Shown: positions 67-58,698 of the stretch, piece after piece
Numbering within the stretch: the first letter of the stretch is position 1
Layout: every line of letters begins with the position of its first letter
Virus record (IMG/VR): IMGVR_UViG_3300033388_001820
Source of the DNA: an uncultured virus (IMG/VR IMGVR_UViG_3300033388_001820)
Taxonomy: Duplodnaviria > Heunggongvirae > Uroviricota > Caudoviricetes
Strand: one strand, 5' to 3'
DNA length: 64,000 bases
Notes under the pieces: model-generated
What the model was told of the DNA's origin: nothing
The model's database searches: none
Seen by the model: only the letters and a program-made list of their open reading frames with translations
Program-made: the position numbers and the translations under genes

Positions 67-1507
67 CGAACATACGTTCAGAAACATGCCTTGACCTGCA
101 CTTATGCGACGCGGGGCACCCTAGGCGACGATCATGCCTCTACATAGGCAAAACGCACTAGAGACGCTTGAGAGCCCTCTAAGAGCGTCAATAGGTAATT
201 CGAATCATTCTCAAAAAATGCACGAAAATGACCCTACACGAACATACGTTCGTTATACCCGTGAGCGAACATACGTTCGCCTCCCACGCCTACGCTCGCG
301 AGGGTACGCGCGCATAATCACGCTACGCGGTCGCCGCGTAATCATGCGACGCGTCGCGCACCATAACACCTAGGATGATCCGAAAGCGAACACACGTTCG
401 CCTCAAATAGCGAACACCCGTTCGTGAGTCAAATGACCCATAAAAAATAGGTCAAATTACCTATACAGAACCCTTGACAACGTACCGTAACACCTAGTAC
501 GTTGAAATCAGGAAGCGAGTCGGCAGCGCAAGGGTGAGAGACCCGGAGCCGGAAATTCGAACCTAGGACTCCGGGTCCGTTAGACCCGGCGAGTCTGCCC
601 TAATGATGGGTCCTGCGTCGTGAGGCGTAGGAGCCGCTAGAGACTAGGGGTATCGTCAAGATAGCGTAACGCCATCGTGACATGCGAGAGGGTAAGAGTC
701 GAGTAGACAGACTCAAACGAATGAGCCTCGCATGAGTCGAGAAGCGGATTGCCGATCGGACGAACAAAGACGAAACGGCGCCACGGCGCCGTGAGAGTCT
801 AGGAATCGCACGTAAAGAGTAGACCGAACATACGTTCGGACACCGTACACCGCGAACGAACACTGCGACCCGGAGTGACCGGGCGCAACCCTAGACGACA
901 CGTCGAACCAGTGAACACACTACGGCTACGGCGCCGCGGTGTTCACAACCCTAGAAACTAGGGTTTCCGGAGTTCGGCAGTCGGTACATACAGAGTGACA
1001 CACGAACAAATGTTCGGTTCAGTAGGACTAAGGGTCCATAGCGTCGCCCATTAGGGTGCGTGAGAGCGAACGGATTACCCCTAGGGGTAGCATCCGCGAG
1101 TAATCATGGGTTCCACGCTCCGGAAACCTACCAAAAGCCGAGTCTGCAATAACCCTACCCGACAAAGGGTAGTTAGGGTGTAGGCCAACGTTCTAAAGTC
1201 AATTCTCAGAATCAAACGAACAAACGTTCGGGCTAGCGCTAAAGGCTAGTCTGCGCCCATATGGGCCAATTATCAATATGTTGGGTTGTAAAGCTACCCT
1301 AACAAAATTGCCGTTTCCGCGCCGTGGCGTGAGAAACACCGTAGAACCGAACATGCGTTCGTAAGACTCTGACTCTCACCCTAGGCGCGATTCACCGCGA
1401 AGCGTACTATCGACCGATGGCGTTGTAAAATTCCATCGGCAAACGTAGAAAAGGGCTCGCAACGGATGCACCTAGGGACCTAAGCGGCATGAGCGAACAA
1501 ACGTTCG
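67..1507. promoter_or_regulatory. Array of ten LexA/SOS-box-like palindromes CGAAC-N4-GTTC(G/A) starting at 67, 239, 266, 387, 411, 825, 1003, 1217, 1348, 1494
   Basis: Read directly. Spacers are ATAC, ATAC, ATAC, ACAC, ACCC, ATAC, AAAT, AAAC, ATGC, AAAC. They match the Gram-positive/actinobacterial LexA consensus GAAC-N4-GTTC, and 9 of 10 fit RNRY. Confidence 0.85.
474..503 (+). promoter_or_regulatory. SigA-type promoter
   Basis: TTGACA(474-479)-N18-TACGTT(498-503). Confidence 0.6.
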
Positions 1508-13310: not shown

Positions 13311-15245
13311 ATGAGCGAATACCTTTACCTTGACGAGAATAGTTGTCCGGCCGGATGCAAAGAAGGCGGGATTGACGACTACTACGCACCAGGCTTTGAC
13401 CCTGACTTCTACCCGTGGTACAGCAACGACGGCCACAAGCTCGTAGCCCGCGGCGGTGCCTACGGTTACGACAAGCTCTGGGACATCAAACGTTTCAAGG
13501 GCATCGACCTTCGTAACCTGATCGCGGACTTTTACCTGCTGGACGCTGTTGCCTCATGCGTCCTTGTCCCCGGTGTCACACCGCAGGTGGCAGCCAACCC
13601 GGCTGTGCTTCTGGAAATGATCGACGCTGGCTTCTACTCTCGCAACGCCGATTCACCCGAAGGTGTGGCCCTGGAAGCAGCAATCGCTTTTGCCCGCCAC
13701 ACACTCAAGTACGCCCCGATGATTCGGGACTACATGCACTACGCTTGTGCATCGGAAATCCAGTTCCATCCAGTCGGCTACCCGATCGGAACGTCGTTCG
13801 GAGAATGCGCCGTAGGCTGGCACAAAGTGATCGAGCATTTCGGACATGAAGTTGCAGCCTCCTGGCTCGTGGACGTGTTTAACGCCAAAGGCTGGTCAGG
13901 CGGTTTCGGTGGCAAAGCCTGGAAAGGCATCGCTGTTGTGGCCCATGCTTACGAGACAACCCAGTGGCTCGGTGAGTCGTTCGGTCCTCGTGAGTTCTTG
14001 GATCGTGCGTTCTCGCTACAGCACAACGGCGGCACCATGTTCAACAAGTGCGAATGGGCCGACAGTGTTGGCAACGTGCAGAAAGTTCTTGACGCTCATG
14101 CTAACAGTGACTGGGCTAAGCTGCACAAACATGCCAGTCAGAACACACAGAGCCTTGTTGCGAAGTATCTGACGGTTTGTGACGTGGAGGATCACAACAA
14201 GCTTCTTGGCATCAAGGTTGCCCCTCCTGTCGTAGTAACACCTACTCCGACCGTTACAGTCAACACCAACATCAACGGCAACACCACCCCCAGCACGAAT
14301 GATGGCAACTTTCATCCTACTGGTGCCACCTACGAACTGCCCGAACTGTTTGCTCTGTGCAAGGGATTGGTCATCAAAACGGAAGGCGTCACCTACAAGG
14401 TGTCAGCATCCGGGTCGATCAAGACCACGCTCAAGCATTACAGTCACCCGTATTGGGAAGGCACAAACTACAACACTTCCTACATCCTCAAGAAGATCAA
14501 CGATGGACATTGGACCTTGTTCACCGACTACGGTACCGAGTATGTTCTCGGCGCACCGGCGTTACCGGAGTTCGCTGTTGGCAAGGTCATCGTCCACAAG
14601 TCCACCGGGCATGTGTACGAGATCGTGGAGTGGTCGGGCGATTCGTACACCTACCACAAGGTTCACGAGAGGAAAGGCAAGTCTACCTTTAACCCGATCA
14701 AGACAGCCGACCCTCAAGCGTTCTTGAAGCACTTTGTCACATGGGACAAGACGTTCGATGACGAGTGGGTGCTTGTTAACGAACCGGAGAAGATGCACGA
14801 ATGGCCGTCCACGTCCAACCACGCCACATGGACCAACAACTACAAGCCTGAACCCAAGCACATACCGACACCGTTGGTCGATCCTGAGTTTGAGAAGCTA
14901 CTCAAGGAAGAGGAAGCAATCGAAGCCTCAATCGTTCACAACGTGGTGCAAACGACGAGTGACTATGCCTATGACCTACTGCCGCAACTCAAACTTGGCA
15001 CACTCATCTACCACACCAAACTTGAGAAGAACGACCACAAGATGATCAACATGTGGCCTGTTACCTTCTGGGGATGGACTGACGACGGTCACATGAAAAT
15101 GAAGTTCTGGGACGGCAGCACACTGAAACACAACCCGTGGATATACACTGACGTACAGGGATACCTTGAGTCGGGGACATGGACGCTTCTTCCTCACCCA
15201 TCGCCCACCCCAACCCAGCCCTTTTACCCAGACTTCACAGACTGA
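13311..15245 (+). CDS. Hypothetical protein with N-terminal 'GGxAW...LQHN' domain (paralog 1 of 3)
   Basis: 644-aa ORF. Motifs FYLLD, YMHYA, GFGGKAW, FLDRAFSLQHNGG are shared with 19572-21071 and 25363-26310. Confidence 0.85.
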   Translation: MSEYLYLDENSCPAGCKEGGIDDYYAPGFDPDFYPWYSNDGHKLVARGGAYGYDKLWDIKRFKGIDLRNLIADFYLLDAVASCVLVPGVTPQVAANPAVLLEMIDAGFYSRNADSPEGVALEAAIAFARHTLKYAPMIRDYMHYACASEIQFHPVGYPIGTSFGECAVGWHKVIEHFGHEVAASWLVDVFNAKGWSGGFGGKAWKGIAVVAHAYETTQWLGESFGPREFLDRAFSLQHNGGTMFNKCEWADSVGNVQKVLDAHANSDWAKLHKHASQNTQSLVAKYLTVCDVEDHNKLLGIKVAPPVVVTPTPTVTVNTNINGNTTPSTNDGNFHPTGATYELPELFALCKGLVIKTEGVTYKVSASGSIKTTLKHYSHPYWEGTNYNTSYILKKINDGHWTLFTDYGTEYVLGAPALPEFAVGKVIVHKSTGHVYEIVEWSGDSYTYHKVHERKGKSTFNPIKTADPQAFLKHFVTWDKTFDDEWVLVNEPEKMHEWPSTSNHATWTNNYKPEPKHIPTPLVDPEFEKLLKEEEAIEASIVHNVVQTTSDYAYDLLPQLKLGTLIYHTKLEKNDHKMINMWPVTFWGWTDDGHMKMKFWDGSTLKHNPWIYTDVQGYLESGTWTLLPHPSPTPTQPFYPDFTD

Positions 15246-15261
15246 CCACAAACGACATTTC

Positions 15262-15290
15262 TTGACAACCTCGCCGGAACCTGATACAAC
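15262..15290 (+). promoter_or_regulatory. Putative SigA-type promoter upstream of the dikinase/phosphatase genes
   Basis: TTGACA-N17-TACAAC with extended TG. Confidence 0.5.
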
Positions 15291-15494
15291 AGAGGGACCG
15301 GCACAAATTGAAAGGCATCATGTCACCAACAGCAGAACCAGACGAACGATTCGAACCACGAGCAAAGCGTGAGATCCTCTTCGGAATCATGAAAAAGCAG
15401 AAGCTTCCCAGCATCTTCCACGCCGAAGACGTGCTCAAAGACATGCCCGACGACACAGCGCTGGGCTTTCTCCCCAAGGAGTTCAACAAGTAGC

Positions 15495-17279
15495 ATGGCA
15501 AACACCACAGCATTCACGTTTGACGCCACCCATGCCGGGAACAAGGTCGCTGACCTCAAATCCCGCCTCGGTGGCAAGGGTGCAAACCTTTGGCACATGA
15601 CCCGCAACCTGGGTCTGCCTGTGCCGCAAGGTTTCACCATCTGTACCAACGAGACGTTCTTGCATCGAGGCTCGAAGAGTCTCCGCAACCCGCTCAGTAA
15701 CCGCATCGACAAGCTCATTGCACGACTGGAAGAGGACGCCGGACGGCGGTTCGGTGATCACACCGACCCGCTTCTTGTCAGTGTCCGATCAGGTGCAGCA
15801 GTCTCCATGCCAGGTATGATGGAGACGATCCTGAACCTCGGCATGAACCGTGAAGTCACCAAGGCTCTTGCCGATCAGGTAGACGAACGATGGGCGTGGG
15901 ATTCGTACCGACGCTTTATCCAGATGTACGGCACGATCGTGCTGGACATACCCGCAGCGTTCTACGCTGACCGACAGGTGGCAGCGCAGCGATTCTACGG
16001 CAGCGACAAGCTGGACGTGGAGTTCTTGCAGCTTCTTGTCAGTGCCTTCCTGGCAGACACCGACGTTCCCTCCGACCCACGAGAACAGTTGCACAGCGCA
16101 GTCCTTGCTGTGTTCCGCTCATGGTTCGGTGACAGAGCAGTCAAGTACCGTGATATCGAAAACATCCCTGCCGATCTCGGTACGGCTGTCAACGTGCAGC
16201 GCATGGTGTTTGGCAATCTCACTCCCCGATCAGGAACGGGTGTTGCTTTTACCCGCAACCCGAATACGGGAGAGCGTGTACACTACGGAGACTTCTTGGC
16301 AGAAGCACAAGGTGAGGATGTGGTCGATGGATCACGCAACACCAGCCCGCTGGATCACATGCCACGACTCGGGTTTCCTGAGGCATACGAGGAACTGGCT
16401 CACATTCTCGACGGACTTGATCGTGAGTACGGCGACATGTGTGACGTGGAGTTCACGATCGAAGACAACCAGTTGTTCATCCTCCAGACCCGAATCGGCA
16501 AGCGTGCCCCGCAAGCCGAACGACGGATCGTGGTTGACCTTCTCGCCAACGGTGACATCACCGCAGAGCAGGCACACGAACGGTTGGAGAACGTTTGGGA
16601 AAATGCATCACAGCCTTCCAATGACGTGGCTTCCTTTACCGGCGTCGTGCTCGGTGAGGGTCTAGCTGCTTCACCGGGTGTAGCGGTTGGTGCGATCGTG
16701 ACATCCTCGAAAGCTGCTCTCGCCGCTGAGGGTCCCGTGATCCTGTGTCGCCCCGAAACGTCCCCGGACGATGTGGACGGCATGTCGGCTGCGGTTGGTA
16801 TCCTCACTGCCAAGGGTGGTGCGGTATCACATGCTGCGGTTGTTGCCCGGTCGTGGGGTAAGCCCTGCGTCGTTGGCTTCGACAAGATCACGGTTACCTC
16901 TGAGGGAATCGTGTTTGATGGTCAGTTGTACCCTGCCGGTACGCTGCTTCGTGTCAACGGGTCAACCGGAGTCGTGGAGGTGGCTTCGGATGTGGAAACG
17001 TCCGAGGTTACCACAGTAATTGCCAACAAGGACAACGTGGCAGCAGGCATGAAAGGTGTCATTCTTGCCGGTACGGTCATCAATGATGTGACCACGGCCA
17101 CTGTAAAGGATGTGGCTGTCGAGATCGTAGATGTCTTCACCGCTCAGACGGGCGGCGAGTACGACATGGATGTCAAGTTCTTGGGGAACGCCACCGACAA
17201 GGACGGTTACGTGTTCGTGGCCTCAGGAGTGAGTTGGTCCCTCAACTTCGATCACGTCATGGTGGACATCACTCAATGA
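15495..17279 (+). CDS. Pyruvate phosphate dikinase-like protein: ATP-grasp plus phospho-His swivel domain, lacking the PEP/pyruvate-binding barrel
   Basis: LGGKGANL, PLLVSVRSGAAVSMPGMMETILNLG, GTAVNVQRMVFGN, SGTGVAFTRNPNTGE, AQGEDVV, DVEFTIE..LFILQTR, GILTAKGGAVSHAAVVAR. Only 594 aa. Confidence 0.92.
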   Translation: MANTTAFTFDATHAGNKVADLKSRLGGKGANLWHMTRNLGLPVPQGFTICTNETFLHRGSKSLRNPLSNRIDKLIARLEEDAGRRFGDHTDPLLVSVRSGAAVSMPGMMETILNLGMNREVTKALADQVDERWAWDSYRRFIQMYGTIVLDIPAAFYADRQVAAQRFYGSDKLDVEFLQLLVSAFLADTDVPSDPREQLHSAVLAVFRSWFGDRAVKYRDIENIPADLGTAVNVQRMVFGNLTPRSGTGVAFTRNPNTGERVHYGDFLAEAQGEDVVDGSRNTSPLDHMPRLGFPEAYEELAHILDGLDREYGDMCDVEFTIEDNQLFILQTRIGKRAPQAERRIVVDLLANGDITAEQAHERLENVWENASQPSNDVASFTGVVLGEGLAASPGVAVGAIVTSSKAALAAEGPVILCRPETSPDDVDGMSAAVGILTAKGGAVSHAAVVARSWGKPCVVGFDKITVTSEGIVFDGQLYPAGTLLRVNGSTGVVEVASDVETSEVTTVIANKDNVAAGMKGVILAGTVINDVTTATVKDVAVEIVDVFTAQTGGEYDMDVKFLGNATDKDGYVFVASGVSWSLNFDHVMVDITQ

Positions 17280-19570
17280 TCGAATGTCTTTGCCGAGACG
17301 CAGCTAAGAAATACCGCTGCGAAACATGTCGCGTGAAACGTGACAACTTGTTTGACCTTGACTGGGAGGCTCTTGACGCGGCTGACACGGAACCATTCTG
17401 TGATCACTACGGCCTTGGAAAACTCTATGACGAAACACCAATCCCCTATTACTACTGCACGAACTGTGGAGTTGCAGCCCACACCATCAGTCACCTACAC
17501 GAGAAAGGGTCGGATATGAGCAAGAAGAAACAACGCAATCGCAAAAAGCGTGCTCTGGAAGCTGTCAGAGCCGTCAGGTTCAATGATGTATTCGAAACAC
17601 CCGACGCCTGGTACCTTTGTACTGGCTGGTCGAAGCCATCGTCAGGCAACGCATACGTGATCCGGTCTAAGCCGCTCTCTGATGAGGCTGAGACCTTGCC
17701 GAAAGCAAACCCGACATGGGATGAGGACTACGTTTCAGCGTGTGTGAAAGCCAAGACGTGGACCAATCACGGCAAACTTCCTGTCGCTAAGGGTCAGGAA
17801 TTCAAAACTCAAGTCGGCACCTCAAACAAGATTTGTGCAGGTTGGGACGAACACGGTTGCATGTTGTACCGTCTCAAAGATGCGCAAGGCACACACGTCA
17901 CGAAGGTTCCCAACTGGAACGTACCCCACGTCCAGCAGCGATTCGAAACCGACTGGGAAATCGTCGGTGGCCCAACTTCAAAGGTGCCGGTGCCGGTACG
18001 TAAGTGCAACTTGTGTGCTCTGCGTCAACCGAAGAAGAACGAGAAAACATGCACACCATGCAAGGATCGTAAGACTTGTGCTCGATGTCACATCAAGTTC
18101 GATGATCCCGAGTTTCTTACGAAATGCGATCACAAGATCCACGAGCAGTATACAACTGCTACAGCGACAACGAAGAAAGCCAAGACAACCAAATACGGCG
18201 GATTCAGTAAATGTCGCCACTACCATCGACCGGTCAAACTGCCCGGTGGGTTCATCGTTCATGCTTCATCCATGAACAACAAGCGCAAGAAGGAGGACGG
18301 ACTTCCCGACTGGGGATTGTACGCCGACTGGGGATGGAAGCCTTATTGGCGAGCCGAACACATCGACTGGCAAGACTTCGGTATCCCGTTCGATGACGTG
18401 ATCGCATTTGAGCAGATCCTCGTAGCTATCGAGAAGATCCAGAAAGGCGAAGATGTCGAGGTTGGCTGCATTGGTGGACATGGTAGAACCGGTACCATCA
18501 TCGCAGCCATGCGAGTCATCCTTGGAGAGGACGCCAACACGGCGATCCTGACGACACGAAAAGAATACTGCTCCCATGCTATTGAGACGGCTGAGCAAGA
18601 ATGGTGGATCGAGTGGGTAGAATCCGCAGTCCGCGGTACACCTCTCACAGAGAAGCCTGCCTTCTCCTATGCCGACTTCGGTTATGGTGGCGGTAGCAGC
18701 TACTCGGTAGGTGCCAACCACGCCAAGAACAAAGCTCCGACTGCCAAGTATGCCAACGACTGGGAAAACGGCGGCAACTGCTCGCAGTCCGCTCACTTCT
18801 ACATGTGGCTCAAGGGCCACGAGAACTGTACGAAGTCAAACTCTTGCAAGTTCTGGGAAACTGACATCAAGTCGTTCGAAATATCGAAGGGCGGTGGCAA
18901 GTGGTCCGAGAACATGATGAAAGATGTGGAAGGCATCGCACGACCCTACGTGTGGCATCATGCACGAGCCAAGAAAGGGGGCTTTCATCCAAACGACCCG
19001 CTTTCAAAGCCGAAGTCAACAGCACCCGGCACAAAGCCAAAGGGTCAGATCAACAAGAACATCGGCTACGAGGTACGTGTTCCAACCGAGGATGGTCTCG
19101 GCATGACCATCGTCAAGGTTCATGCCCCGCCAAGGAAGAAAGACGACATGCACGTTCCGCTACGTAAAGACGGATGTCACTGTGATGTTTGTCGCTACGT
19201 TCGGGGCGGCTACGGTGCCTTCATCATGCCTGGAGACTTGACCGACGCAGCCATCTGGACTAAAGAGATGGACGCTTTGGAAACGATAGCCGACAAGGCT
19301 GTCACGGCCAGACTGCACATAGACGCTGGACGAAGCGTTACGATCCTGCTGGCAGACGGCAAGTTCGTAGAGTCTCGTGTCTCCGACAACTGGGAGGCAG
19401 AGCCATCCGGTGAAGGACTGTTCCCGTTCGAGATGAACGAGAACTGGCAGTGGATCAGCGACGAGAACATTTGGGTTTGGATTGGCGCTTTGTCCGACGA
19501 GGACATTGAAATTCGTGCCAACCTGGCGGTCACCGCCGCATTTGGACTAGCACCAGGGATTGGAGTGTGA
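17276..19570 (+). CDS. Large protein with Cys-based protein-tyrosine/dual-specificity phosphatase domain and Cys-rich (Zn-binding) segments
   Basis: WQDFG acid loop; CX5R motif VGCIGGHGRTGT; HAIETAEQ. Confidence 0.85.
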   Translation: MIECLCRDAAKKYRCETCRVKRDNLFDLDWEALDAADTEPFCDHYGLGKLYDETPIPYYYCTNCGVAAHTISHLHEKGSDMSKKKQRNRKKRALEAVRAVRFNDVFETPDAWYLCTGWSKPSSGNAYVIRSKPLSDEAETLPKANPTWDEDYVSACVKAKTWTNHGKLPVAKGQEFKTQVGTSNKICAGWDEHGCMLYRLKDAQGTHVTKVPNWNVPHVQQRFETDWEIVGGPTSKVPVPVRKCNLCALRQPKKNEKTCTPCKDRKTCARCHIKFDDPEFLTKCDHKIHEQYTTATATTKKAKTTKYGGFSKCRHYHRPVKLPGGFIVHASSMNNKRKKEDGLPDWGLYADWGWKPYWRAEHIDWQDFGIPFDDVIAFEQILVAIEKIQKGEDVEVGCIGGHGRTGTIIAAMRVILGEDANTAILTTRKEYCSHAIETAEQEWWIEWVESAVRGTPLTEKPAFSYADFGYGGGSSYSVGANHAKNKAPTAKYANDWENGGNCSQSAHFYMWLKGHENCTKSNSCKFWETDIKSFEISKGGGKWSENMMKDVEGIARPYVWHHARAKKGGFHPNDPLSKPKSTAPGTKPKGQINKNIGYEVRVPTEDGLGMTIVKVHAPPRKKDDMHVPLRKDGCHCDVCRYVRGGYGAFIMPGDLTDAAIWTKEMDALETIADKAVTARLHIDAGRSVTILLADGKFVESRVSDNWEAEPSGEGLFPFEMNENWQWISDENIWVWIGALSDEDIEIRANLAVTAAFGLAPGIGV

Positions 19571-19571
19571 G

Positions 19572-21071
19572 ATGACTAGATACGGAGATACACCAACAGT
19601 GAACGGGTGGACGAAGACCACCACACTCACAACAGACGAGGACGAATGGAAACAGATTTGGCAAGAGGCTGCAAAGTCGGACAAAGTAGACGTCCCTAGG
19701 GTCGCTGCTGAGTTCTACCTGCTTGAGATCATTAGCGCTCACGTCGGGATTTCAACTCCTGGTGTAGGACCTGCCTCCGAGCTACCGATCACTCCCGAAG
19801 AGTTCTTCGAACTGCTCAACATCAAGAACCCTACACAACGTCAGAGTCTATTGCAGAGTCGAATAGAACGACTCGGTGACTCTGGTCCCGAAGAGGATCT
19901 CACCGCTTTGCGACGGTGTGCGATCGTCTCAATGGCAGAATTGGTTGATGCTTACATGCCAACCTTCTACGAGTATTTGAACCTGGCTATCGGTGGCGAG
20001 ATACGTCACCATCGGGCAGGACGTGAGGTACTCAGTTCGAACCGGCCGATCGCATGGTGCGATTGGCAACACGTGTTCGAAGAGCATGGCGTGTCGGCTA
20101 TCCAAAATGCAGCCTTGCTGTTTCGAGAGTTTCCAAGCAACGCTGGTTATGGTGGCGAGGCGTGGGCACAAGCCGCGGAGATCCTCGCTTCTTTCCTAGA
20201 CGGTCGGCTTGGACCCGACGAGGCAACGAACCGACGTTTGTTCATGGACAGGGTATGGACGTTGGAACACAACAACGGATGTATTCTCAACAAGGTTCCT
20301 TGGATCAACCTTGATCACATCCAAAAGGTACTGAACGCTCACGCAGCGAACCCACCCAACTTGCAGGCTTTGTACAAACGGGCCGGACGCGGAGTGCGTG
20401 ATATGTGGAACCAGTACATCGACGTCTGCAACGTCCTACGAGACAAGGACGGCGAGCAACCCATCGAATACGATTTCACCAAGACAACCTACTTCGGTCG
20501 ATGCAACTATTGCGCCTCAAATGTAGAAGCCGGACACGATTTCAGTTGTGCGGCTCGTCTGTTTGACGAGTTCAACGGTGGAGCGTTTGACGCAAACACG
20601 GCGAGCGGATGGTACAGTGTTTGGGACGACGAAATGATAGAAGAACAAAGCGTTGGCGAGATGTTCCACCGCAACGCAGATCAGCTTGCGATCACACCGC
20701 AAGGCACGATGGAGATTGACAGCAACCAGAAAGTGCGATACAAAGTCACCATCATTCCCTACGACGGTGCAGGAAACTACGCCGACAGCTACGGTCAGTA
20801 TGACACCGGATACCAGTTTGTGACATGGGGAGAGATGCTCACCGAGTCAATCTCACCAGCATCCATTATCCCCTCCGACGCAGCGCCAGTCGAGAAGATG
20901 GAATTCCGTCTCAGCGTTTATGCTGTGGACAATGACACCAACATGGACATCTACCGCATCGCAAAAATGTACCAGTACCATCCTATCATGCCGGTTGACG
21001 TCAACGAGCCTGTCAATTTGAAGGACTGGATGAAACACTGTTACAACGACATAACAATCAAAGCCCTCTGA
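19572..21071 (+). CDS. Hypothetical protein with 'GGxAW...LEHN' domain (paralog 2 of 3)
   Basis: FYLLE, GYGGEAW, FMDRVWTLEHNNGCILNK, VLNAH. Confidence 0.85.
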   Translation: MTRYGDTPTVNGWTKTTTLTTDEDEWKQIWQEAAKSDKVDVPRVAAEFYLLEIISAHVGISTPGVGPASELPITPEEFFELLNIKNPTQRQSLLQSRIERLGDSGPEEDLTALRRCAIVSMAELVDAYMPTFYEYLNLAIGGEIRHHRAGREVLSSNRPIAWCDWQHVFEEHGVSAIQNAALLFREFPSNAGYGGEAWAQAAEILASFLDGRLGPDEATNRRLFMDRVWTLEHNNGCILNKVPWINLDHIQKVLNAHAANPPNLQALYKRAGRGVRDMWNQYIDVCNVLRDKDGEQPIEYDFTKTTYFGRCNYCASNVEAGHDFSCAARLFDEFNGGAFDANTASGWYSVWDDEMIEEQSVGEMFHRNADQLAITPQGTMEIDSNQKVRYKVTIIPYDGAGNYADSYGQYDTGYQFVTWGEMLTESISPASIIPSDAAPVEKMEFRLSVYAVDNDTNMDIYRIAKMYQYHPIMPVDVNEPVNLKDWMKHCYNDITIKAL

Positions 21072-21082
21072 AAGGAGCACCC

Positions 21083-22594
21083 ATGCTAGTCAAAAATCTA
21101 TGCGAGAAGCAAAGCGACGAGTGCCCCGGCGACAACGGCTACAACTACGAATGCATGTACTGCAACCTGACCACACAAGACTGTCAGTGCATTCTGCAAG
21201 AACCCGACCACGAAGCAACCCTTTATTGTTACACCTGCAACGATGTCCGAGAGTTCACCATCTTCGACACCAACCTTGACTTCAATACTGTCGTCGGAGA
21301 GTTGGTAGACGAACACGATGACGGGTTCGAACACTACGTCGACATCTCATCCGAAGAAGAGCCCATAAAGTCAGCGAAAGCGTCGGCTGAAATTCTGTAC
21401 GGCAAATGTCGACACCGGAACTTCCCGATCACTTTCCCTGACGGCACCAAGGTGTTTGCATCGTCACAACACAGCAGAGCAAAGAACGATCCCGAACCAG
21501 ACTTGAGTCTTTATCTCGACTGGTCATGGAACCCGAGCGGACCTGCCTATTACCTTGACTGGCGTGACTTCGGTCTGCCTAGCTCATGGGTTCCCGCAGC
21601 GAAGACGATCATCGACGTGTTCCAACGGGCACGAGAGACTCTTTGGGTCGAGATTGGCTGCATAGGAGGTCATGGCCGCACAGGCACCGTGCTGGCTGCT
21701 ATGGCGGTTCTCAGTGGAGTTCCCGCTAAGGATGCTGTCGATTGGGTACAGAAAGAGTATTGCAAGCACGCAGTAGAAACGGATCTACAAGCATGGTGGG
21801 TTGAATGGTTCGCTGCGTGGGTCAATGCTACCGACGTTCCCGCCTACCCGAAGTATGACGCGAAGACAAAGGAAGTGGAGTACATCCAGCTTGAGTCTTA
21901 CAGCGACAACGAACAACTCGATCTGAACGCCGAAAACTTCCAAGCTCTTTGGATCAGCGCTCACACGACAAAGGACGTGGACACATCGGATCAAGTTATC
22001 CAGCGGGAATTTTCTCAGGACTGGGACAAACCAGACTGGGACTCAACAGACTTCATGGAAGAGTGGAAGAAAGAACAGTTTGAAGGTCGGGATGGGACAG
22101 CGTTCCCGTTCCATTACCTGACCCACGTCGGCTACGACATGGTGACCGACTATCTCGACGGATTGGATGACCGAACGATTCAGTACATCGCTCGACTCTA
22201 CTACGATGTTGGCGAAGAGGTTAACTCGTTTGCTAACATCAAGGACTTTGTGCGAAGCTACGAAGAAGCAACACCTGAAGACATTGACACGTTTCTCGCA
22301 ATGGATCTAAACGAGTTCATAGAAGACAAGGAGCGTCGGACAGAAGAGACCAAGGCAGATACTCGCACCAGAGAGACAAGTGCTTTCTCGATGAAGCTCG
22401 CTGACAAGGTGTTTACGTTCGAATGGACGGCCTTAGCAGATGTCGGGGAAGCCGAAGCGCTCTTCGATTCACTTGACTACGAGTCCGAAGTGTGGTTAAG
22501 TGGTTACCTAGGCGATAAATTCGGTGAGGTGTTCAACCTTCCCGAGTTGATCGAAGCTGTTAAAGAATGCGACCTACACGCCGAGCCTTTCTAA
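21083..22594 (+). CDS. Second Cys-based PTP/DSP-like phosphatase
   Basis: WRDFG; IGCIGGHGRTGT; HAVETDLQ; clear paralog of 17276-19570. Confidence 0.85.
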   Translation: MLVKNLCEKQSDECPGDNGYNYECMYCNLTTQDCQCILQEPDHEATLYCYTCNDVREFTIFDTNLDFNTVVGELVDEHDDGFEHYVDISSEEEPIKSAKASAEILYGKCRHRNFPITFPDGTKVFASSQHSRAKNDPEPDLSLYLDWSWNPSGPAYYLDWRDFGLPSSWVPAAKTIIDVFQRARETLWVEIGCIGGHGRTGTVLAAMAVLSGVPAKDAVDWVQKEYCKHAVETDLQAWWVEWFAAWVNATDVPAYPKYDAKTKEVEYIQLESYSDNEQLDLNAENFQALWISAHTTKDVDTSDQVIQREFSQDWDKPDWDSTDFMEEWKKEQFEGRDGTAFPFHYLTHVGYDMVTDYLDGLDDRTIQYIARLYYDVGEEVNSFANIKDFVRSYEEATPEDIDTFLAMDLNEFIEDKERRTEETKADTRTRETSAFSMKLADKVFTFEWTALADVGEAEALFDSLDYESEVWLSGYLGDKFGEVFNLPELIEAVKECDLHAEPF

Positions 22595-22606
22595 AAGGAT
22601 ACCAAC

Positions 22607-25366
22607 ATGGCCGATACGATGACAATGACCACAGACACAGACACCGACACCCGCATCGCTGACCTAATCGCTGAAATCGACCGCTTTACCGCTGTGAACA
22701 CGAAACGCAATCTGGTGCCAACTTCGGAAGTCGTGAACTTCTGTTTGGACCTTCGCAACATTCTCCACACCCCTGAGAGGGACGAGACACAATGAGTGAG
22801 TACATGGATGGCTTTGCAGAAGTGACGAGAATCATGAAAGAAGCCGTAGACGAGGTAACGAAGCCGCTGAGAGACGAAATCAGCGTATTGCAAACTCAAC
22901 TCAACCTTGCCAAGGGTGGCCTATCCGTTATTGCCAAAGTAGGAGAGGACAACTTCTGCGTTACGGAAGCACTCCACCGTTTGGCTGCCATCAACGCATT
23001 TGACGTACCGAACGCTTCGCTAGAAACGATGCCGGTATCGCCATATCGGCAGACATCATCTTCTTTGGGAAAGGAGCACGATGGAAACGATCGTGACGAA
23101 AGCCATCATCCATCAACTGATTGAACGCGACAAGGAACACCAGTTCACCAAGTGTGGATTGACCCTCGACATAGAGCTAGGCGTTAACATCACGACTGGC
23201 TGGCAAAGCCACGTAACCTGCGAGGATTGCTTGAGTGTCGATAAGATCCTGTGTAAGTGGTGTGACGACACTGGCGTCGTTAGAGGCTGTCCGTACTGTA
23301 TTGGACCCGAAGCCGACTACCACACCATGTGTCTTGACGACGAGGACATTCCCTGTGATGCCTGTACCTGAAGCAAGCCATCCGCACTGGCGATACAAAG
23401 TGATGCTCACGTTTCCAGACGGAATCGAGTGGGAGCTACGAAGCAATCTCTCTTTCACCGATGCTTTCAGAATTGCCAACGACGGACGATGGAACATTTG
23501 CAAAGCGGCGATACAAGCCGACGCCACAAGGAAAGGAACAAACGATGAACGACATCCCGTGCCCGTGTGGAGATTATGACGAAGAGATCGAAACGCTGAA
23601 AGGAATCATCGCACGGTTTGTTGCTCTCGGTAAAGCACGGATTGACCTACACCCCAACAGTCGCAGACTGATCATCGAAGCGCCACCCGGCGTAGCTTTT
23701 TGGATGATTGGAGAAACCGAAGCAGCGTTGCTCGTAGAGCATGGCGTTCCGGTATCGTCTAGACGGAGGACAGCATGACATTCAAAGAATGGTTGAAAGA
23801 AGCAGACACAGTGTTTGCACCGCAAGCGCTAGACATCCACGGTTTCGCTACCGAAGCCGAAATCCGAGCCGTGTACGAAGACGGCGAGAACCCTGTTGAA
23901 TGGGCGAAGGAAGTGAGTGACTGATGACAACAAATGAATTTACCAACGACGAACTGTTGGAAGCTTTGGACATGTTGTGGATGAACATTGATCCCATGCT
24001 GATCGCAGACTTTAGCAACAATCATCATGCCCTCGACGCGTTCCTGCGTTGGAGAAACGACGATGGAGAGCCATCATGACCGGTCTTGTAGAGATCCCAG
24101 TTCCCAGGACTGCACGCATCGAAAAGGGGTACATTCAAACACTAAACAGTGCGGTTCTGCGCACCGCTTACCTTCTTGGTTGGCGATGGCATCGTACCGG
24201 AGCCGAACCAGACGGCTACGGCAGCGGCACCTCGTTGATCAACCGAGAAGGATGCATTCTGATTTGGAATTGGAACATCCCAAACACCAGTGGCGTAGTG
24301 ATCGGCAACAACATATTCACCTACACGTGTCCCGAAGACGAGTTCGCCCCAATGGCACCCCAACTGCTGCTGGATCATGTAATTGAAGCGAACATCCACA
24401 TCGAAAATTATGCAACCAACTCAGAAAGGACACCCCCAGCACATGTCTGACTGGAACGAAGACCAATACAGCGAGGACGTACTAGACCTTCCTCGTGGCA
24501 TCATCGACTACGACAGCATTTTGGACGACTACCAAGACTGGAACGAGACAGACAACCCGTTCGTGGACTTTGGTCCCGACTACGCCCACGACGATCGGTT
24601 TGATGACCCCGACAAGGTTGACCATGAGTGACTGGCAACAGACCCCCATACCCAAAGAGGGGTCCGTCATTGAATTCATGAGACGAGTTGAACCGTACCT
24701 TTACGAAGAAGAATGCAAGACGATACGTCGTTGGAACCCCAACTTTGATCAGCAAGCAAGATGTGATTGCGGTCACCTTTACCACCGTCACTTTGACGGC
24801 TACGACATGGGCGGGATGGAACCCATTGGCTGCAAATACTGTGCCTGTTTCACCTGGCGCACTCCCGGCACACCCGACCCTGACGAACCAGAAATCGTAC
24901 CACCCGACTACGAGATCGTTCTTGGCGTCCACAAGTACCACCGACACGACACGGAATGGATGTTGTTCTCGTTGACCTTGGACGGCGACGAGACACGCTT
25001 TTACGTAGGAGAAGTGAAAGCCGACAAGGCGGAGATGTTGGACGAAATCGAGAAGCTGAGAGGAACCCTATGACTCACAACCCCAGCACCAGCGTGCAAA
25101 TTGAAAACACCGGCACCGGACTCGTCAGGATCTTTGTCCACGACGGCACGAACAACGAAATCGTTATAGAACTTACGTTCGATGACCTCGACCAGATCAT
25201 TGGATGCGGAAACGCATTTGGACTCGCATATCAGTACCTTGTGTCTCTCGGGACCCGAGGGTATGACGGAACAATCGAAGCGTTCGAACTGCAAAACAAT
25301 CCAAACGGCGGGCACGAAGAACTGCCCGATGAACTAACGGTAGAAGACATCATCAACTGGAAGTGA
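22607..25366 (+). other. Run of small hypothetical ORFs
   Basis: Coupled short ORFs with RBS; no recognisable family. Confidence 0.65.
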
Positions 25367-26310
25367 CCATGAGAGACGTAATTCTCAACCCCAAGATGCC
25401 ATCGCAACGTATCGTCAAGGGTGTGTACTGCTATGATTGCAGCACCGAAGACTGTATCTGCTATTCGATCGACCATGCCTACAAGCAAGGCGGGTTTCAT
25501 CCGTGGACACGAGACAACATCCGTGTCTTTGGTCGAGGCTTCGAACAAGGGTACAAGGAAACGTGGAAGACGCACGAGTGGAAACAGATTCCGCTTATTG
25601 AAATGGTTGCCGACTATTACCTTCTAGACGGCATCGCTTCATGCGTAGTCGTACCAGGAGTAGCACCTCCACAAACGATCGTGAACGCAGAACTGATGGT
25701 AGAGATGCTGAAAGCAGGTTTCTACGTTCGCGAGAGGGCTTCCGATCTGAAAGCCACCGCGTTCAAAGCGGCTGTAGCATTCGCTAAGCTGGTCACCAAA
25801 AACGCTCCAATCGTTCGTGACTACATGCACTACGCTATGGCAGGTGAATTGTCCTGCTCCGAGGACCTTTACCGGTCGATTGGCAGTTACGAGAGCTACG
25901 ATGCCTGCGTATCGTGGCATCACATGATCAAAGAGTTCGGCTACGAGAAATGTGCTCGATGGGCGATGGAAGCCTTTGACGAGTGCGAATGGCCTGGCGG
26001 CTACGGCGGCTATGCTTGGGAAAGCATCGCTCAAGTTGCTCACAACTACGAGACAGGCACTTGGCTGGGTCAACGGTTCGGATCACGAGAGTTTCTAGAC
26101 CGGGCCTTTTCTTTACAGCACAACAATGCTACTGTGTTTGATAAGACACAGTGGCAGGATGACCCTTCGGATCTTGAATATGTGCTGAATGCACACTCCG
26201 AGTCCCGCTGGAACATCCTGTACAACAACGCTTCACAAACGACGAGGACATTATTCAACGAGCACGTCGAGGCGTGCAACGTGACCCCGAAAGAGGTACT
26301 TCATGACTGA
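25363..26310 (+). CDS. Stand-alone 'GGxAW...LQHN' domain protein (paralog 3 of 3)
   Basis: YYLLD, YMHYAMAGE, GYGGYAW, FLDRAFSLQHNN, VLNAH. Confidence 0.85.
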   Translation: MTMRDVILNPKMPSQRIVKGVYCYDCSTEDCICYSIDHAYKQGGFHPWTRDNIRVFGRGFEQGYKETWKTHEWKQIPLIEMVADYYLLDGIASCVVVPGVAPPQTIVNAELMVEMLKAGFYVRERASDLKATAFKAAVAFAKLVTKNAPIVRDYMHYAMAGELSCSEDLYRSIGSYESYDACVSWHHMIKEFGYEKCARWAMEAFDECEWPGGYGGYAWESIAQVAHNYETGTWLGQRFGSREFLDRAFSLQHNNATVFDKTQWQDDPSDLEYVLNAHSESRWNILYNNASQTTRTLFNEHVEACNVTPKEVLHD

Positions 26311-29022: not shown

Positions 29023-29829
29023 ATGGCAAAAATCACCAAGTGGGTCAGCGACTTGACCCTAAGAATCGGTCCTATCCAAACCAGTGGCGCTTTGACCGGC
29101 GTCCGCAAATCCAAGACGAAGTACAAGAAGTCCACGTTCAAGTACGTCACCCCTGAGGGTGAGGCAGTCCAGCAACGCTACGTCGACAAGGCCGGAACGC
29201 AGTTCACGGTCGATCAGCTTGGCAAGGCAACCGCGGTCATTGATGACGAAGGCAACGAGATTCTCGTGCCGGTCGCTGCTGACGCAATCGCCAAGGCCAA
29301 GGAATCCAGCCTACCGAAGAACGTTGTCAACATGACGGTGCATCCGGCTACACAGGTCGACCGGCTCCTTTACCAGTCCGACACCAACGGCTACGTGTTC
29401 ACACCGGACGACTCCGATCCTGCCAACGTAAACTGGCACGACCTTCTGCTTCGATTGCTTGCCGATCGAAACAAGGCTTTCATTTCGAAGGCCAACGTGC
29501 GAGGTAACGAGGGTTTGTATCGGATTTCCACATGGAACGGTCGTATTGTCCTACAGCGGGTCCTTTACCCGGCTGAGGTTAACGAGTACGATGACGTCAC
29601 ACCGAACCCGGTCGCTCACGAGACGGTCGAGAAGTTCGAAGCGTGGGTGGAGAACCAGTCTGCTGCGTTTGATCCTGACGACTACGAAGATAACGTGACA
29701 GCTAACCTGGCTGCCATGTCCGAGGCTTTCGCTTCTGGCGAAGCCGAATACAACCCGGCCCCGGTCGCTGTAGAAACGGTCGAAGTTGACCTGCTCGCTG
29801 CGCTTGAGGCTTTCGAGGTCACAACATGA
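29023..29829 (+). CDS. ku: Ku-like DNA end-binding protein
   Basis: Ku-like pattern: LQRVLYPAEV, FDPDDYED, C-terminal VDLLAALEA; sits near a ligase gene. Confidence 0.7.
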   Translation: MAKITKWVSDLTLRIGPIQTSGALTGVRKSKTKYKKSTFKYVTPEGEAVQQRYVDKAGTQFTVDQLGKATAVIDDEGNEILVPVAADAIAKAKESSLPKNVVNMTVHPATQVDRLLYQSDTNGYVFTPDDSDPANVNWHDLLLRLLADRNKAFISKANVRGNEGLYRISTWNGRIVLQRVLYPAEVNEYDDVTPNPVAHETVEKFEAWVENQSAAFDPDDYEDNVTANLAAMSEAFASGEAEYNPAPVAVETVEVDLLAALEAFEVTT

Positions 29830-30545
29830 ACGATCCCAAGAATAACGCCGCTGAGATCGGTCTAGCAATCGCAACGCTGGCCCGTACCCAGTATCAGACG
29901 GGGACCGACACTGGCGATGCTCGCCGTGCCCTTTGTCTGATTCTCGACAACCTCGCTAAGGAGCAATCATTATGAAACGCACAGGAGTCTTCGCAACCGA
30001 AGACGAAATCAAATCCCTGAAAACGCTGCTTGGGCAGCCGCTGATTGCACCGGCTGGCATCATGCCACGCTCTCCTGCACAGCTAGCACATGAGTTCGCT
30101 CTCGCTCATGGACTTCCTGAGGTGCGAGGATATTACGGATGCGATCTGGAAAACGGCGAGTTTGTGAGCGCCTAATGTTGGGTGAAACCCTCGAAAACAA
30201 GGAGAAGAGTGCCGATGACTGACGAGAACCCCGTTGAGACAGTGAAACTGTTGCGGGAAAGAGTGAAGCAGGAGGCCGAAAAGCTAGGATTAGATGTCCA
30301 CAGCTTTGCTCTTATTCCGGGTGATGACAATTCCCCGGACCTGGCACAGGTAGTGTTCACAATTGGACTTGAAGCTATTGAGTCCAAAGACGAAACGGAG
30401 ACACGACAAACAGATGCGGCTTTTGAAGAACTGGTGGGCGCTGAGTTCACTGGAGAATCAACCACAGAAGAACAAGCGTCAGCGGATGAAAGGCTTGAAG
30501 GCCAAGTTGACGCTGCCACAAGGGAGGCTCTTGATGGACTTTTCG

Positions 30546-31367
30546 ATGAAGACTGACATCACTCCAATGCTTGCACGTCCTTTTGAAGGAGACGTAGACC
30601 TTTACGCTCTGGATTGCCAATGGGTGTTTGAGCAGAAGATCGACGGCAAACGAGCACTCGTTCATGTCGCAGATCGCAAGGCTGTTGCATACAACAGGCA
30701 AGGCGAAGAGACAGGAATGCCTGACACGGTACATCAGGCGTTTGACAACAAGGGCTTTGATGGCCGTTGGGTGTTCGATGGAGAAATCCTTGATCACGTC
30801 CTATGGGTGTTCGATGTGCTTGTCTGCCCAGGGCCTGAAGGGTCGATCACGGATCTCCGCGATTTGGCCTTTTCGGCTCGACGTCAGTTTCTTGATCAGC
30901 TTTTCGACCAATGGAAACCCGAGCATGTAAAGCTTGTACGGCAAGAACACAGGGACGTGAAGAAGTCCATGCTAATCAAGCAGGTCCACGACAGCGGCGG
31001 CGAAGGTGTGGTCATCAAGCATCTAGCTTCCAAGTACGAAGGCAAACGTTCTCATAACTGGTTGAAGCTCAAGTTCACCGCAACCCACGAGGCTGTTGTA
31101 ACGAACCTACTCCGAGGCGGCAAGGAACTTGCAGTCGACATTGGATACACCCACGGAGGTGTGCTTGTTGAAGCTGGCGGGTTGAAGATTCCTAACCGGA
31201 TCATCGACCAAGTTAAAGCCGGTACGGTTGTAGAGGTCAGATACCTTTACGCCACAGCCGACCACAAGCTGTATCAGCCAGTGTTTCTTCGTATCCGAGA
31301 CGACAAAACCCCGGAGGAATGCACGACTGAAGGTTTGCAGTACACGGACAGAAGGGTGCTAGTATGA
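30546..31367 (+). CDS. ATP-dependent DNA ligase (minimal, LigC/LigD-ligase-like)
   Basis: PMLA, motif I EQKIDG, FDGEI, VFDVL, EGVVIK, WLKLK, PVFLRIRDDK. Confidence 0.9.
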   Translation: MKTDITPMLARPFEGDVDLYALDCQWVFEQKIDGKRALVHVADRKAVAYNRQGEETGMPDTVHQAFDNKGFDGRWVFDGEILDHVLWVFDVLVCPGPEGSITDLRDLAFSARRQFLDQLFDQWKPEHVKLVRQEHRDVKKSMLIKQVHDSGGEGVVIKHLASKYEGKRSHNWLKLKFTATHEAVVTNLLRGGKELAVDIGYTHGGVLVEAGGLKIPNRIIDQVKAGTVVEVRYLYATADHKLYQPVFLRIRDDKTPEECTTEGLQYTDRRVLV

Positions 31368-31841
31368 TCACGAATGACGAAATGGAAGCCCGAGCACTTG
31401 CGATGGCTCACCAATGGGATAAGGAAGTCGAAGATCCAGAGATTCCGTTGATAGCGGCTTTGGTCTGTGATATCCAGAAGCTTTTCAACTTCAACCTGGA
31501 GGAATGGGACTTTTCAGAAGATGTCATCTTGCAGGCTGCTGTTGATTATCGTCACGGGCCGAAGAAACTCGGAGACTGTCTGATAGACATAATGGCATCA
31601 TGAACTATGAGGAAGAGGTGGCTGCTGCGTTCGAAGAAGCCCGCCTAGAAACGGAGCTAGACAACACAGAAGTGTTACTTCGTTCGTTGCGAACATTCGA
31701 CGTAGCGGCCACTCTTTCACGCATCACCGACAAGGACGGTGTGCTGCATCCGGCACTCGTCTTGACACCAGACACATATTCGGCTATGATCAAACTGATC
31801 CAACAAGCCGGAATAAACCAATTCACTCTGTAAAGGAAACT

Positions 31842-41773: not shown

Positions 41774-41847
41774 CCCCTGGTAGCTCAATGACAGAGCAGC
41801 CGCCTCTAAAGCGGAAGACGGTGGATCGTAACCACCACAGGGGGCCA
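41774..41847 (+). tRNA. tRNA with CTA anticodon (amber suppressor; atypical D and T loops)
   Basis: Cloverleaf; loop CTCTAAA; T-loop ATCGTAA; G73-CCA. Confidence 0.75.
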
Positions 41848-41848
41848 A

Positions 41849-41925
41849 GCGCCCGTAGCTCAACTGGCAGAGCGGCGGCTTCTAAACCCGATCGGTTGTG
41901 GGTTCAAATCTCACCGGGCGCTCCA
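41849..41925 (+). tRNA. Second tRNA with CTA anticodon
   Basis: GCGGC-TTCTAAA-CCCGA arm, nearly identical to the tRNA-Trp arm GCGGC-TTCCAAA-CCCGC at 42882; TCCA end. Confidence 0.7.
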
Positions 41926-45295: not shown

Positions 45296-45341
45296 CCGAA
45301 CACTTGTTCGGTTTGCACAACGAACACTCATTCATTAGGTT
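45296..45341 (+). promoter_or_regulatory. SOS box adjacent to a putative promoter
   Basis: CCGAACACTTGTTCGG (45296-45311); TTGCAC-N17-TAGGTT (45313-45341) with degenerate box CGAACACTCATTC in the spacer. Confidence 0.6.
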
Positions 45342-45513
45342 CCCCTATAGGGAAGGAGTCACGATTTCAAGTGACTCACGGAGGCAACAGCGAAAAAGGG
45401 ATTAGAGTAGCTAGGGTGACAAACCAGTATCCTTGATGCCGGGGAGTTCCGGCTAGACACAGCAGCCATCTGCGGGTGGTAGGCATCTGTTAGGTCACCC
45501 CCTCCACTCCAAC

Positions 45514-45542
45514 TTGACACAGCTACACCGGCGTGTTATGCT
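45514..45542 (+). promoter_or_regulatory. SigA-type promoter
   Basis: TTGACA-N17-TATGCT. Confidence 0.72.
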
Positions 45543-57629: not shown

Positions 57630-57705
57630 GGTACCGTAGCTCAGCAGGAAGAGCGCTGGCGTGAAGCCCCAGAGGTCGTTGGTTCGACTCCGACCGGTAC
57701 CACCA
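57630..57705 (+). tRNA. tRNA-Phe(GAA)
   Basis: Loop GTGAAGC, ACCA. Confidence 0.85.
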
Positions 57706-57729
57706 CTCCAACCATGCTATACTATCTCC

Positions 57730-58698
57730 ATGAGCATTGATCAAGTACAAAAAAACCTAGAGAAGAAGTTCGGCAAGGGTGCCGTCGTTCGCATGAACGA
57801 CAAACCTCAAGACATTGAAGTAATCCCGACAGGGAACATAATCCTCGACATGGCTCTAGGTGTTGGCGGCTACCCGCGAGGTAGAATCGTTGAAATCTTC
57901 GGACCTGAATCCTCTGGCAAGACAACGCTGGCTACACACGCAGCGGCTGAAGCACAGAAACTCGATTTGAACGTGGCCTACATCGACGCAGAGCACGCTA
58001 TTGACCCGACATACACCGAAGCGTTGGGCGTAGACCTTAACGCTGTCCTGCTCAGTCAGCCTGACAGCGGCGAGCAGGCTCTTGAGATCGCTGACGAAAT
58101 GGTCAAGTCAGGAGAGTTCGGATTGATCGTAGTGGACTCTGTAGCGGCTCTCACGCCTCGTGCAGAGCTAGCAGGTGAGATGGGAGACTCTCATATGGGG
58201 CTGCAAGCACGGTTGATGGGGCAGGCTCTACGCAAGATGCGTGGCACCGCCAACACAACTGGTACGACGCTCATCTTCGTCAATCAGATTCGTGAGAAGA
58301 TCGGGGTCATGTTCGGGTCGCCAGAAACTACACCGGGTGGACGTGCGCTCAAGTTCTTCTCCACTATCCGTCTCGACATCCGTCGCATCGGTGCGATCAA
58401 AAACGGTGTTGAGATCATGGGCAACGAGACACGAGTCAAAGTCGTCAAGAACAAGGTGGCACCGCCGTTCAAACAGGCCGAGTTTGACATCATGTATGGT
58501 CGTGGTGTGTCGCAGTCAGGGTCGATCATTGACCTCGGCGTGGCAGAGGACTTGATCTTGAAGTCCGGCGCGTGGTACACTATCGGAGAAGAGCAGGTGC
58601 AGGGTCGTGAGGCTGCCAAAGATTCGCTAGAATCTCAGCCTGATCTGATGGCGGAACTGTACGAGAAGCTAGCCTACGAGGACGAGACAGGTGACTGA
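57730..58698 (+). CDS. recA: Recombinase RecA
   Basis: [78 protein letters not shown] at 57718-57723 suggests a leaderless transcript. Confidence 0.98.

Follow-up and report, generated by a model that had tools for sequence, protein, structure and literature searches.

The DNA analysed here, referred to below as the window, is a 64,000-nucleotide stretch from an uncultured virus of the Caudoviricetes (IMG/VR record IMGVR_UViG_3300033388_001820), and represents the left portion of a tRNA-rich phage that is large and novel. It begins with a gene-free, palindrome-rich leader carrying an array of ten palindromes of the form CGAAC-N4-GTTCG, the form of the operators (SOS boxes) recognised by the SOS repressor LexA. 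These boxes are arranged around a promoter at 474-503, five upstream of it as two close pairs and one single (67, 239/266 and 387/411), and five downstream (825, 1003, 1217, 1348 and 1494), the latter spread along the 1.1 kb of gene-free leader that would be transcribed ahead of the first early gene. The features concerned, including the one box found elsewhere in the window, are as follows:

1-1605, + strand: gene-free, palindrome-rich leader with the array; only short open reading frames (ORFs), which lack family matches
67-80: box 0, CGAACATACGTTCA, one mismatch
239-252: box 1, CGAACATACGTTCG, perfect core
266-279: box 2, CGAACATACGTTCG, G..C flanks extending it to a 16-bp palindrome
387-400: box 3, CGAACACACGTTCG, in a 25-nt unit common with box 2 at 88% identity
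411-424: box 4, CGAACACCCGTTCG, its end 50 bp upstream of the -35 element
474-503, + strand: sigma-70-type (host-type) promoter TTGACA-18-TACGTT, the only match to TTGACN-16/19-TANNNT in the first 31 kb, the next being at 31762
825-838: box 5, CGAACATACGTTCG, C..G flanks
1003-1016: box 6, CGAACAAATGTTCG, perfect core
1217-1230: box 7, CGAACAAACGTTCG, perfect core
1348-1361: box 8, CGAACATGCGTTCG, perfect core
1494-1507: box 9, CGAACAAACGTTCG, perfect core
45297-45310: the sole box outside the leader, CGAACACTTGTTCG, starting 2 nt past a TGA stop codon

An exact scan for the pattern CGAACNNNNGTTCG returned 10 matches in the window, nine of them in the leader (239, 266, 387, 411, 825, 1003, 1217, 1348 and 1494) and the tenth at 45297, against a mean of 0.12 expected from 100 dinucleotide shuffles, of which none reached ten and the highest gave two. 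The remaining leader copy, at 67-80, ends in GTTCA and so has one mismatch; it still fits the shorter pattern GAAC-N4-GTTC, for which the window holds 15 matches (1.70 expected), 10 of the 15 within the first 1506 bases. No further box appeared when bases 1-2000 were scanned with up to two mismatches. The first 2.4% of the window accounts for ten of the 11 boxes, none of which is in coding DNA, and when 11 sites were placed at random 200,000 times, ten of them never fell inside 1441 bp. A preliminary description of this DNA, made by eye from the letters, had claimed ten near-perfect sites in the first 1.5 kb, five on each side of a TTGACA promoter at 474 and all with A-first spacers on the + strand, together with a single further perfect copy at 45297; the pattern and promoter scans bear this out, the ten being exactly nine perfect copies and one with a single mismatch. 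The lone box lies 204 bp upstream of a promoter (45514-45542) that drives a tRNA-Lys and a sigma-factor gene, and a CGAACA half-site and a CTAGGGT are found close by. A stricter promoter scan of positions 1-2500 returned no promoter.

The ten core positions are all kept in nine of the ten leader boxes, and nine of the ten are kept in box 67, while no box has a T immediately left of the core or an A immediately right of it. The spacers of the leader boxes follow a rule of their own, with A at position 1 in 10/10, A at position 3 in 8/10 and C at position 4 in 9/10, and the spacer edges are purine..pyrimidine (R..Y) in 11/11 boxes of the window. A purine first and a pyrimidine last in the spacer is also the consensus for LexA of Bacillus subtilis and Corynebacterium glutamicum. 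The core equals that of the published LexA consensus sequences TCGAAC(N4)GTTCGA of Mycobacterium tuberculosis (PMC3381160) and tCGAAC-N4-GNNCGa of Streptomyces venezuelae (PMC9380542), in line with the earlier identification of GAAC-N4-GTTC as the Gram-positive/actinobacterial LexA operator. The phage boxes thus share with the host SOS (Cheo) boxes described for Actinobacteria and Firmicutes the 10-nt core, the 4-nt spacer and the R..Y edges; they differ in number and setting, host boxes occurring one to three per gene and at promoters, whereas the leader has ten, none overlapping the promoter and with the outer T..A wanting in 20 of 20 half-sites. Judged by this operator match, host LexA likely binds the leader boxes. 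The centre-to-centre distances between neighbouring boxes (172, 27, 121, 24, 414, 178, 214, 131 and 146 bp) showed no shared helical phase.

LexA-type box arrays are a recurrent feature of phages, because three boxes with no gap above 30 nt occur in 90 stretches of IMG/VR when the spacer is left unconstrained, compared with one stretch each for two control palindromes of the same composition, the backwards GCTTG-N4-CAAGC and the everted GTTCG-N4-CGAAC; two boxes with A..C spacers at 6-16 nt from each other were found in 50 stretches. The 80 IMG/VR loci that we fetched contained 330 boxes, 272 of them with R..Y edges (AT 129, AC 66, GT 66, GC 11), and varied in base composition from 27% to 77% G+C. 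In each of five other phage records that were scanned whole, all boxes fell into one region (7/7, 7/7, 17/17, 5/5 and 4/4, the 17 being within 8 kb of a 171-kb genome), and the reversed control pattern had no match in these five records. The proteins flanking the arrays are unrelated to those of the window, except for one methyltransferase in common and one short weak match. The genes beside 61 non-redundant IMG/VR arrays (122 ORFs) form an early or DNA-metabolism mix that includes DnaB, SSB, Ku, SNF2, methylases and AdoMet decarboxylase, and none of the 122 ORFs belongs to the LexA or S24 family. A search for cultured relatives of two array-bearing contigs found none, and four related low-G+C contigs were 94% identical, which is too close to reveal selective conservation of the boxes. 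That the same palindrome and the same spacer rule occur in unrelated phages of diverse G+C content fits a conserved host factor rather than lineage-specific phage proteins, and the array of the window belongs to a recurrent and apparently undescribed signature of phages that is composed of LexA operators.

Individual loci of this collection vary in their setting. In L012 (2560-3100), as also in L033, L021 and L032, which are low-G+C contigs of 65-118 kb with four to five boxes, the boxes are interspersed with GTTCCAGCTTA units and with repeated TTGAC hexamers that precede GCGCGCC, such that they abut promoter-like elements. Triple boxes inside a long ORF were seen in L055 (2001-2058), where the ORF encodes an HTH_36 protein and lies between SSB and DnaB, in L076 (2001-2062), where it is of no known family and next to DnaB, and in L083 (2001-2170); such in-ORF triple arrays may represent the iterons of an origin or else LexA sites placed at one.

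We tentatively favour, without holding it to be probable, a SOS-coupled control of the phage early arm that is exerted through serial LexA sites. The sequence shows the array, where it lies and how it fits the operator; LexA binding, a roadblock effect and a benefit to the phage are what we infer, in the following manner. The ten palindromes would be double-stranded DNA sites for a LexA-type repressor, most likely the LexA of the host, and in an undamaged cell LexA dimers would occupy the array. The five downstream sites would then act as serial roadblocks to RNA polymerase, singly leaky and jointly strong, and the upstream sites would raise the local LexA concentration and block read-through, serving as reservoir and insulator. 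Cleavage of LexA, by the SOS response of the host or aided by a RecA of the phage, would lead to full expression of the early arm, the result being an early programme coupled to the DNA-damage state of the host and a LexA counterpart of the 'lytic deferment' described for CtrA. The phage's own RecA, which the preliminary description had invoked as a driver of LexA cleavage, was confirmed when the ORFs of the window were scanned (137 ORFs against Pfam and 108 against PHROGs):

57661-58698, + strand: phage RecA (PF00154, E 7e-124), with no box nearby

Such a control would have relatives among known phage systems. In virulent phages, arrays of CtrA sites located in gap regions or terminal repeats are bound by CtrA and control gene expression, for which 'lytic deferment' has been described (Mascolo et al. 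2022, PMC9437464), and the introduction of that paper describes Spo0A sites in phage Phi29. As described there, the CtrA arrays resemble the present one in that a large intergenic region of a tRNA-rich, probably virulent phage is full of high-scoring sites for one global regulator of the host, in that the sites have an extremely skewed intergenic distribution, and in that the signature occurs independently in several phage lineages. They differ in that binding and regulation are experimental results for CtrA, whereas the leader boxes are known from sequence alone; in addition, CtrA sites favour promoters, whereas here no box overlaps the sole recognisable promoter, and the regulator would be LexA. 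The second point of reference is provided by switches such as that of phage GIL01, in which host LexA acts together with gp7 (PMC4551915), other LexA-controlled phage switches being those of CTX-phi, coliphage 186 and SPC32H (cited in PMC9437464). These accounts share with the favoured control an SOS operator of the host inside a phage control region, with LexA cleavage as the signal; however, the phages are temperate and carry one to three boxes on a promoter, unlike the ten boxes over 1.45 kb described here, none of them on the promoter. Moreover, our scans found no lysogeny genes in the 64 kb, and a gp7-like co-repressor was not searched for.

Several points weigh against SOS-coupled control, and the first of these concern the promoter. 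The -35, the -10 and the start site of the promoter at 474-503 are all clear of boxes (50 bp separate the end of box 411 from the -35, and ~320 bp the -10 from the start of box 825), and therefore classical occlusion by LexA, by which the preliminary description had the early promoter silenced, does not fit. A relaxed promoter scan found no other promoter at a constant distance from the boxes, and promoter-like matches are about as dense in the leader (1.76/kb) as in the whole window (1.44/kb). The hexamer TACGTT, the -10 of the promoter at 474, is also found inside four boxes; having no -35 partner there, it was taken as coincidence. To our knowledge, LexA is not an established elongation roadblock. 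As to the boxes themselves, 0/20 half-sites match the outer T..A flank of the actinobacterial 16-mer TCGAAC..GTTCGA, these flank positions being lower-case, i.e., weak, in the S. venezuelae consensus as printed (PMC9380542). All of the nine informative boxes point the same way, which a symmetric dimer would not require; flanks of 16-25 nt are common within sub-groups of the boxes (266/387 88%, 411/1494 90%, 1003/1217 89%), and so the uniform orientation can be a trace of duplication.

Further points against SOS-coupled control lie in the phage and in what is known of its host. The scanned ORFs of the 64 kb gave no LexA-like protein, S24 peptidase or helix-turn-helix (HTH) regulator, which speaks for a host factor; against it, a phage regulator may be encoded beyond the window. 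Relatives that would help to judge the boxes were sought in several collections: megablast of the first 2.4 kb against 50,697 phage records gave no match; tblastn of four proteins against cultured phages gave distant matches only (23-35% identity, e.g., to Bacillus phage 0305phi8-36 and Moorella phage MTATph1); two proteins searched in IMG/VR had no relatives; and neither did one protein and one architecture pattern searched in Joint Genome Institute (JGI) metagenomes, the four matches to the pattern being unrelated to the window. One sediment sequencing run contained short contigs that are nearly all letter-identical to the window (3 differing letters listed), and none of them crosses its first base; no RNA run was listed as matching.

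The indications as to the host phylum point in two directions. The phage encodes an Rpf-type transglycosylase domain and a DUF3039 protein, which we take to point to an actinobacterial host. The DUF3039 protein had one genome match, to a metagenome-assembled genome (MAG) of Dehalococcoidia (44% identity), and this MAG has only 3 perfect boxes vs. 9 for the control pattern, with a different palindrome, AGAAC-N4-GTACT, upstream of its lexA. This palindrome, AGAACATTAGTACT, stands directly ahead of lexA (L151 1700-1830, - strand) and is probably the LexA operator of the Dehalococcoidia lineage, unlike CGAAC-N4-GTTCG. Dehalococcoidia were considered as the host type and did not convince, given the few boxes and the other palindrome before lexA.

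The same sites could also serve the phage with no cis role at all. As a LexA sponge, the array would titrate host LexA, and the SOS regulon (repair, translesion polymerases, division arrest) would be derepressed without damage, the arithmetic being that phage replication would multiply the ten top-affinity sites of each genome beyond the number of the host's own operators. The numbers are suggestive, with ten sites in 1.45 kb against 24 sites with 0-1 mismatch reported for the whole M. tuberculosis genome (PMC3381160); the perfect core suggests high affinity, and the boxes are spread over non-coding DNA without a constant relation to a promoter. Indeed, if LexA binding is real, some titration follows from the number of sites alone. 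However, instead of lying anywhere, the boxes flank the one early promoter on both sides, and in L012 a TTGAC hexamer runs directly into a box, which favours regulation. Nor did we find, in literature that was mostly outside subscription journals, any publication describing phages with arrays, decoys or sponges of LexA boxes. A sponge is hard to tell from SOS-coupled control because it requires no particular placement of the sites; as the sole role of the array we regard it as improbable.

The leader is unusual in its predicted structure as well as in its boxes, and three more of its features, or of its surroundings, bear on what follows:

118-1384, no strand assigned: span over which a second motif, ACCCTAG/CCTAGG, lies among the boxes; enriched in the leader
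505-824, + strand: predicted structured RNA module of the leader transcript, by fold z-score; no Rfam match
1606-1908, + strand: first ORF after the leader, 100 aa, with a ribosome-binding context; no Pfam or PHROG match

Fold z-scores are between -2 and -4.5 on both strands over ~150-1500 and are ~0 in the coding DNA beyond, and the first 1.6 kb, with 24 perfect hairpins having stems of at least 6, are the densest 1.6-kb bin in the window. The segment 505-845 folds on the + strand with -135.2 kcal/mol (z -5.31, 0/100 shuffles as good) and on the - strand with z -2.57, and of the six modules that follow the promoter at 474, four fold better on the + strand. Because the + strand folds better than the - strand downstream of this promoter, the leader transcript is probably a structured RNA and may, by these fold predictions, represent either a structured 5' leader or a new non-coding RNA of the phage. 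Rfam gave only chance-level matches on the leader at E up to 5, tRNAs being all that passed the gathering threshold in the window. Several loops of the predicted RNA at 505-824 are of the GNRA type (GUGA, GAGA). The ORF at 1606-1908 gave an AlphaFold2 model with a predicted local distance difference test (pLDDT) score of 63 and a predicted template modelling (pTM) score of 0.19, too poor for a structure search.

Based on this, the boxes might act single-stranded, as RNA or single-stranded DNA hairpins for processing, stability or protein recognition in a long leader transcript or in small RNAs. The common orientation of the nine informative boxes, with an A-N-A-C loop, would be natural for such elements, as would the stronger predicted structure of the + strand past the promoter (z -5.3 vs. 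-2.6, 505-845), in which each downstream box forms a separate hairpin between structured modules; the box at 45297, 2 nt past a stop codon, could be read in the same way. However, the stems are invariant, without compensatory changes in 10 copies, the 5-bp stem with loops outside the stable tetraloop classes is weak, and no promoter was detected from which the five upstream boxes would be transcribed. U-tracts are absent, with terminator-like matches at chance (4 vs. 3.9 expected), and fully symmetric A..T spacers are common in the IMG/VR arrays (129/330). The stems being constant while loops and flanks differ, sequence-specific recognition is indicated rather than a hairpin of structure only, and we consider a single-stranded role unlikely. 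Nevertheless, the uniform orientation and the structured + strand of the leader give some weight to readings other than LexA.

The second motif leads to a different kind of explanation. ACCCTAG starts at 118, 888, 948, 958(-) and 1378 in the leader (5/7 copies in the window) and CCTAGG at 120, 369, 562, 1080, 1380 and 1471 (6/11), and this motif may, from its distribution, be a second binding site. It forms perfect palindromes at 947-965 (AACCCTAG-aaa-CTAGGGTT) and at 1076-1089 (TACCCCTAGGGGTA), and recurs at 45411-45417, beside the lone box at 45297 and ahead of the promoter that serves tRNA-Lys and the sigma factor. A/T-rich patches at ~209-232 and ~428-470 adjoin both box pairs. The boxes could accordingly be the sites of a phage-encoded or other non-LexA protein, at an origin, in a packaging/terminase region or in an autoregulated control region, their likeness to LexA operators being convergent or due to a LexA-like DNA-binding domain. 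A gene-free, palindrome-rich tract with A/T-rich patches by both box pairs and a promoter is origin-like, the second motif accompanies the boxes both in the leader and near 45297, and the arrays of L055 and L076 adjoin DnaB helicase genes, the classical place of origin iterons. The absence of the T..A flanks also points this way, as does the early arm (1.6-13.3 kb), where 38/38 scanned ORFs lack a known function by PHROGs, one of them matching a PHROG family without function.

A precedent is provided by the Cluster O mycobacteriophages, which have ~34 unexplained, invariant 17-bp palindromes (TGTTCGGNNNCCGAACA) for which the authors invoke a dimeric phage protein (PMC4351075). These are actinophage genomes that have, like the window, a Ku gene and many invariant palindromes made from the letters of a CCGAACA half-site, and most copies were judged by the authors not to be at promoters (PMC4351075). 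According to that account, however, the Cluster O palindromes consist of everted half-sites with a 3-nt spacer (TGTTCGG-N3-CCGAACA) in 34 copies that are genome-wide, partly in genes, and absent from the host, whereas the boxes of the window have the opposite half-site order, a 4-nt spacer, and lie mostly in one tract. Against sites of a phage protein, unrelated phages of 27%-77% G+C share the palindrome and the R..Y rule, which is unexpected for lineage-specific initiators or terminases. Moreover, no DNA-binding family was detected in the window and no recognisable initiator gene near the leader (Pfam, PHROGs), and the minimum of the cumulative GC skew is at ~15-16 kb, not in the leader. Sites of a phage protein are therefore, in our estimate, a rather unlikely explanation, and to something else, or no function at all, we leave a slim chance.

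The phage is apparently virulent, the window having no sign of a temperate or dormant lifestyle; neither an integrase nor a repressor was found in its scanned ORFs (a gp7 homologue was not searched for), and the dormancy switch suggested in the preliminary description finds no support in the window. Nearly all genes are on the + strand. In addition to RecA and the Rpf-type and DUF3039 proteins, the Pfam and PHROGs scans identified a RuvB-like ATPase, Ku, an ATP-dependent ligase, RtcB, a MoxR ATPase, a sigma-70-family protein and HNH endonucleases. The Ku-like protein and the ATP-dependent DNA ligase are close together at 29023-31367, a phage-borne end-joining pair. The Ku of mycobacteriophages Corndog and Omega circularises genomes having short cohesive ends. 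A block at 13311-26310 consists of large paralogues with either a phrog_20946 segment (13311, 19560, 25363) or a weak dual-specificity-phosphatase-like domain (17234, 21083); a PEP-utilising, pyruvate-phosphate-dikinase-like kinase at 15495 lies among them. The early arm at 1.6-6.4 kb is, like the leader, rich in hairpins, and includes a long one (27-nt arms, 85% complementary) between the first two early genes; runs of CA dinucleotides precede the ribosome-binding sites of the next genes, and the hairpin and these runs fall in 1938-2026 and 2015-2211.

There are 40 tRNA genes at 41.8-62.1 kb, 37 of them confirmed by Rfam, and two have a CUA anticodon. These two CUA tRNAs are adjacent (41774-41925), carry the ARAGORN label 'Pyl' and would read the amber stop codon. 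Among 111 predicted + strand ORFs, TAG is the stop codon in 13 and TGA in 79. Recoding of TAG at the right end of the window was considered and dropped, as reading TAG as Q gives no longer ORFs at 62-64 kb; late genes beyond the window might have TAG recoding.

Phages are known to exploit host LexA through one or a few operators at a switch promoter, and phages are known to carry dense arrays of CtrA and Spo0A sites. With a dense LexA-type array in the gene-free leader of a large, apparently virulent phage, 'lytic deferment' would reach as far as the SOS response. The finding also draws attention to a 1.1-kb leader RNA that is predicted to be structured. With ~90 unrelated viral contigs having the signature vs. 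one per control, such arrays may be common in phages of Gram-positive-type hosts, and the phage may by this means read, or soak up, the SOS signal of its host. If the sites titrate LexA, this would be a new kind of host manipulation through DNA alone, and the ~90 IMG/VR arrays would then represent a class of DNA decoys, widespread and undescribed, that targets a transcription factor of the host.

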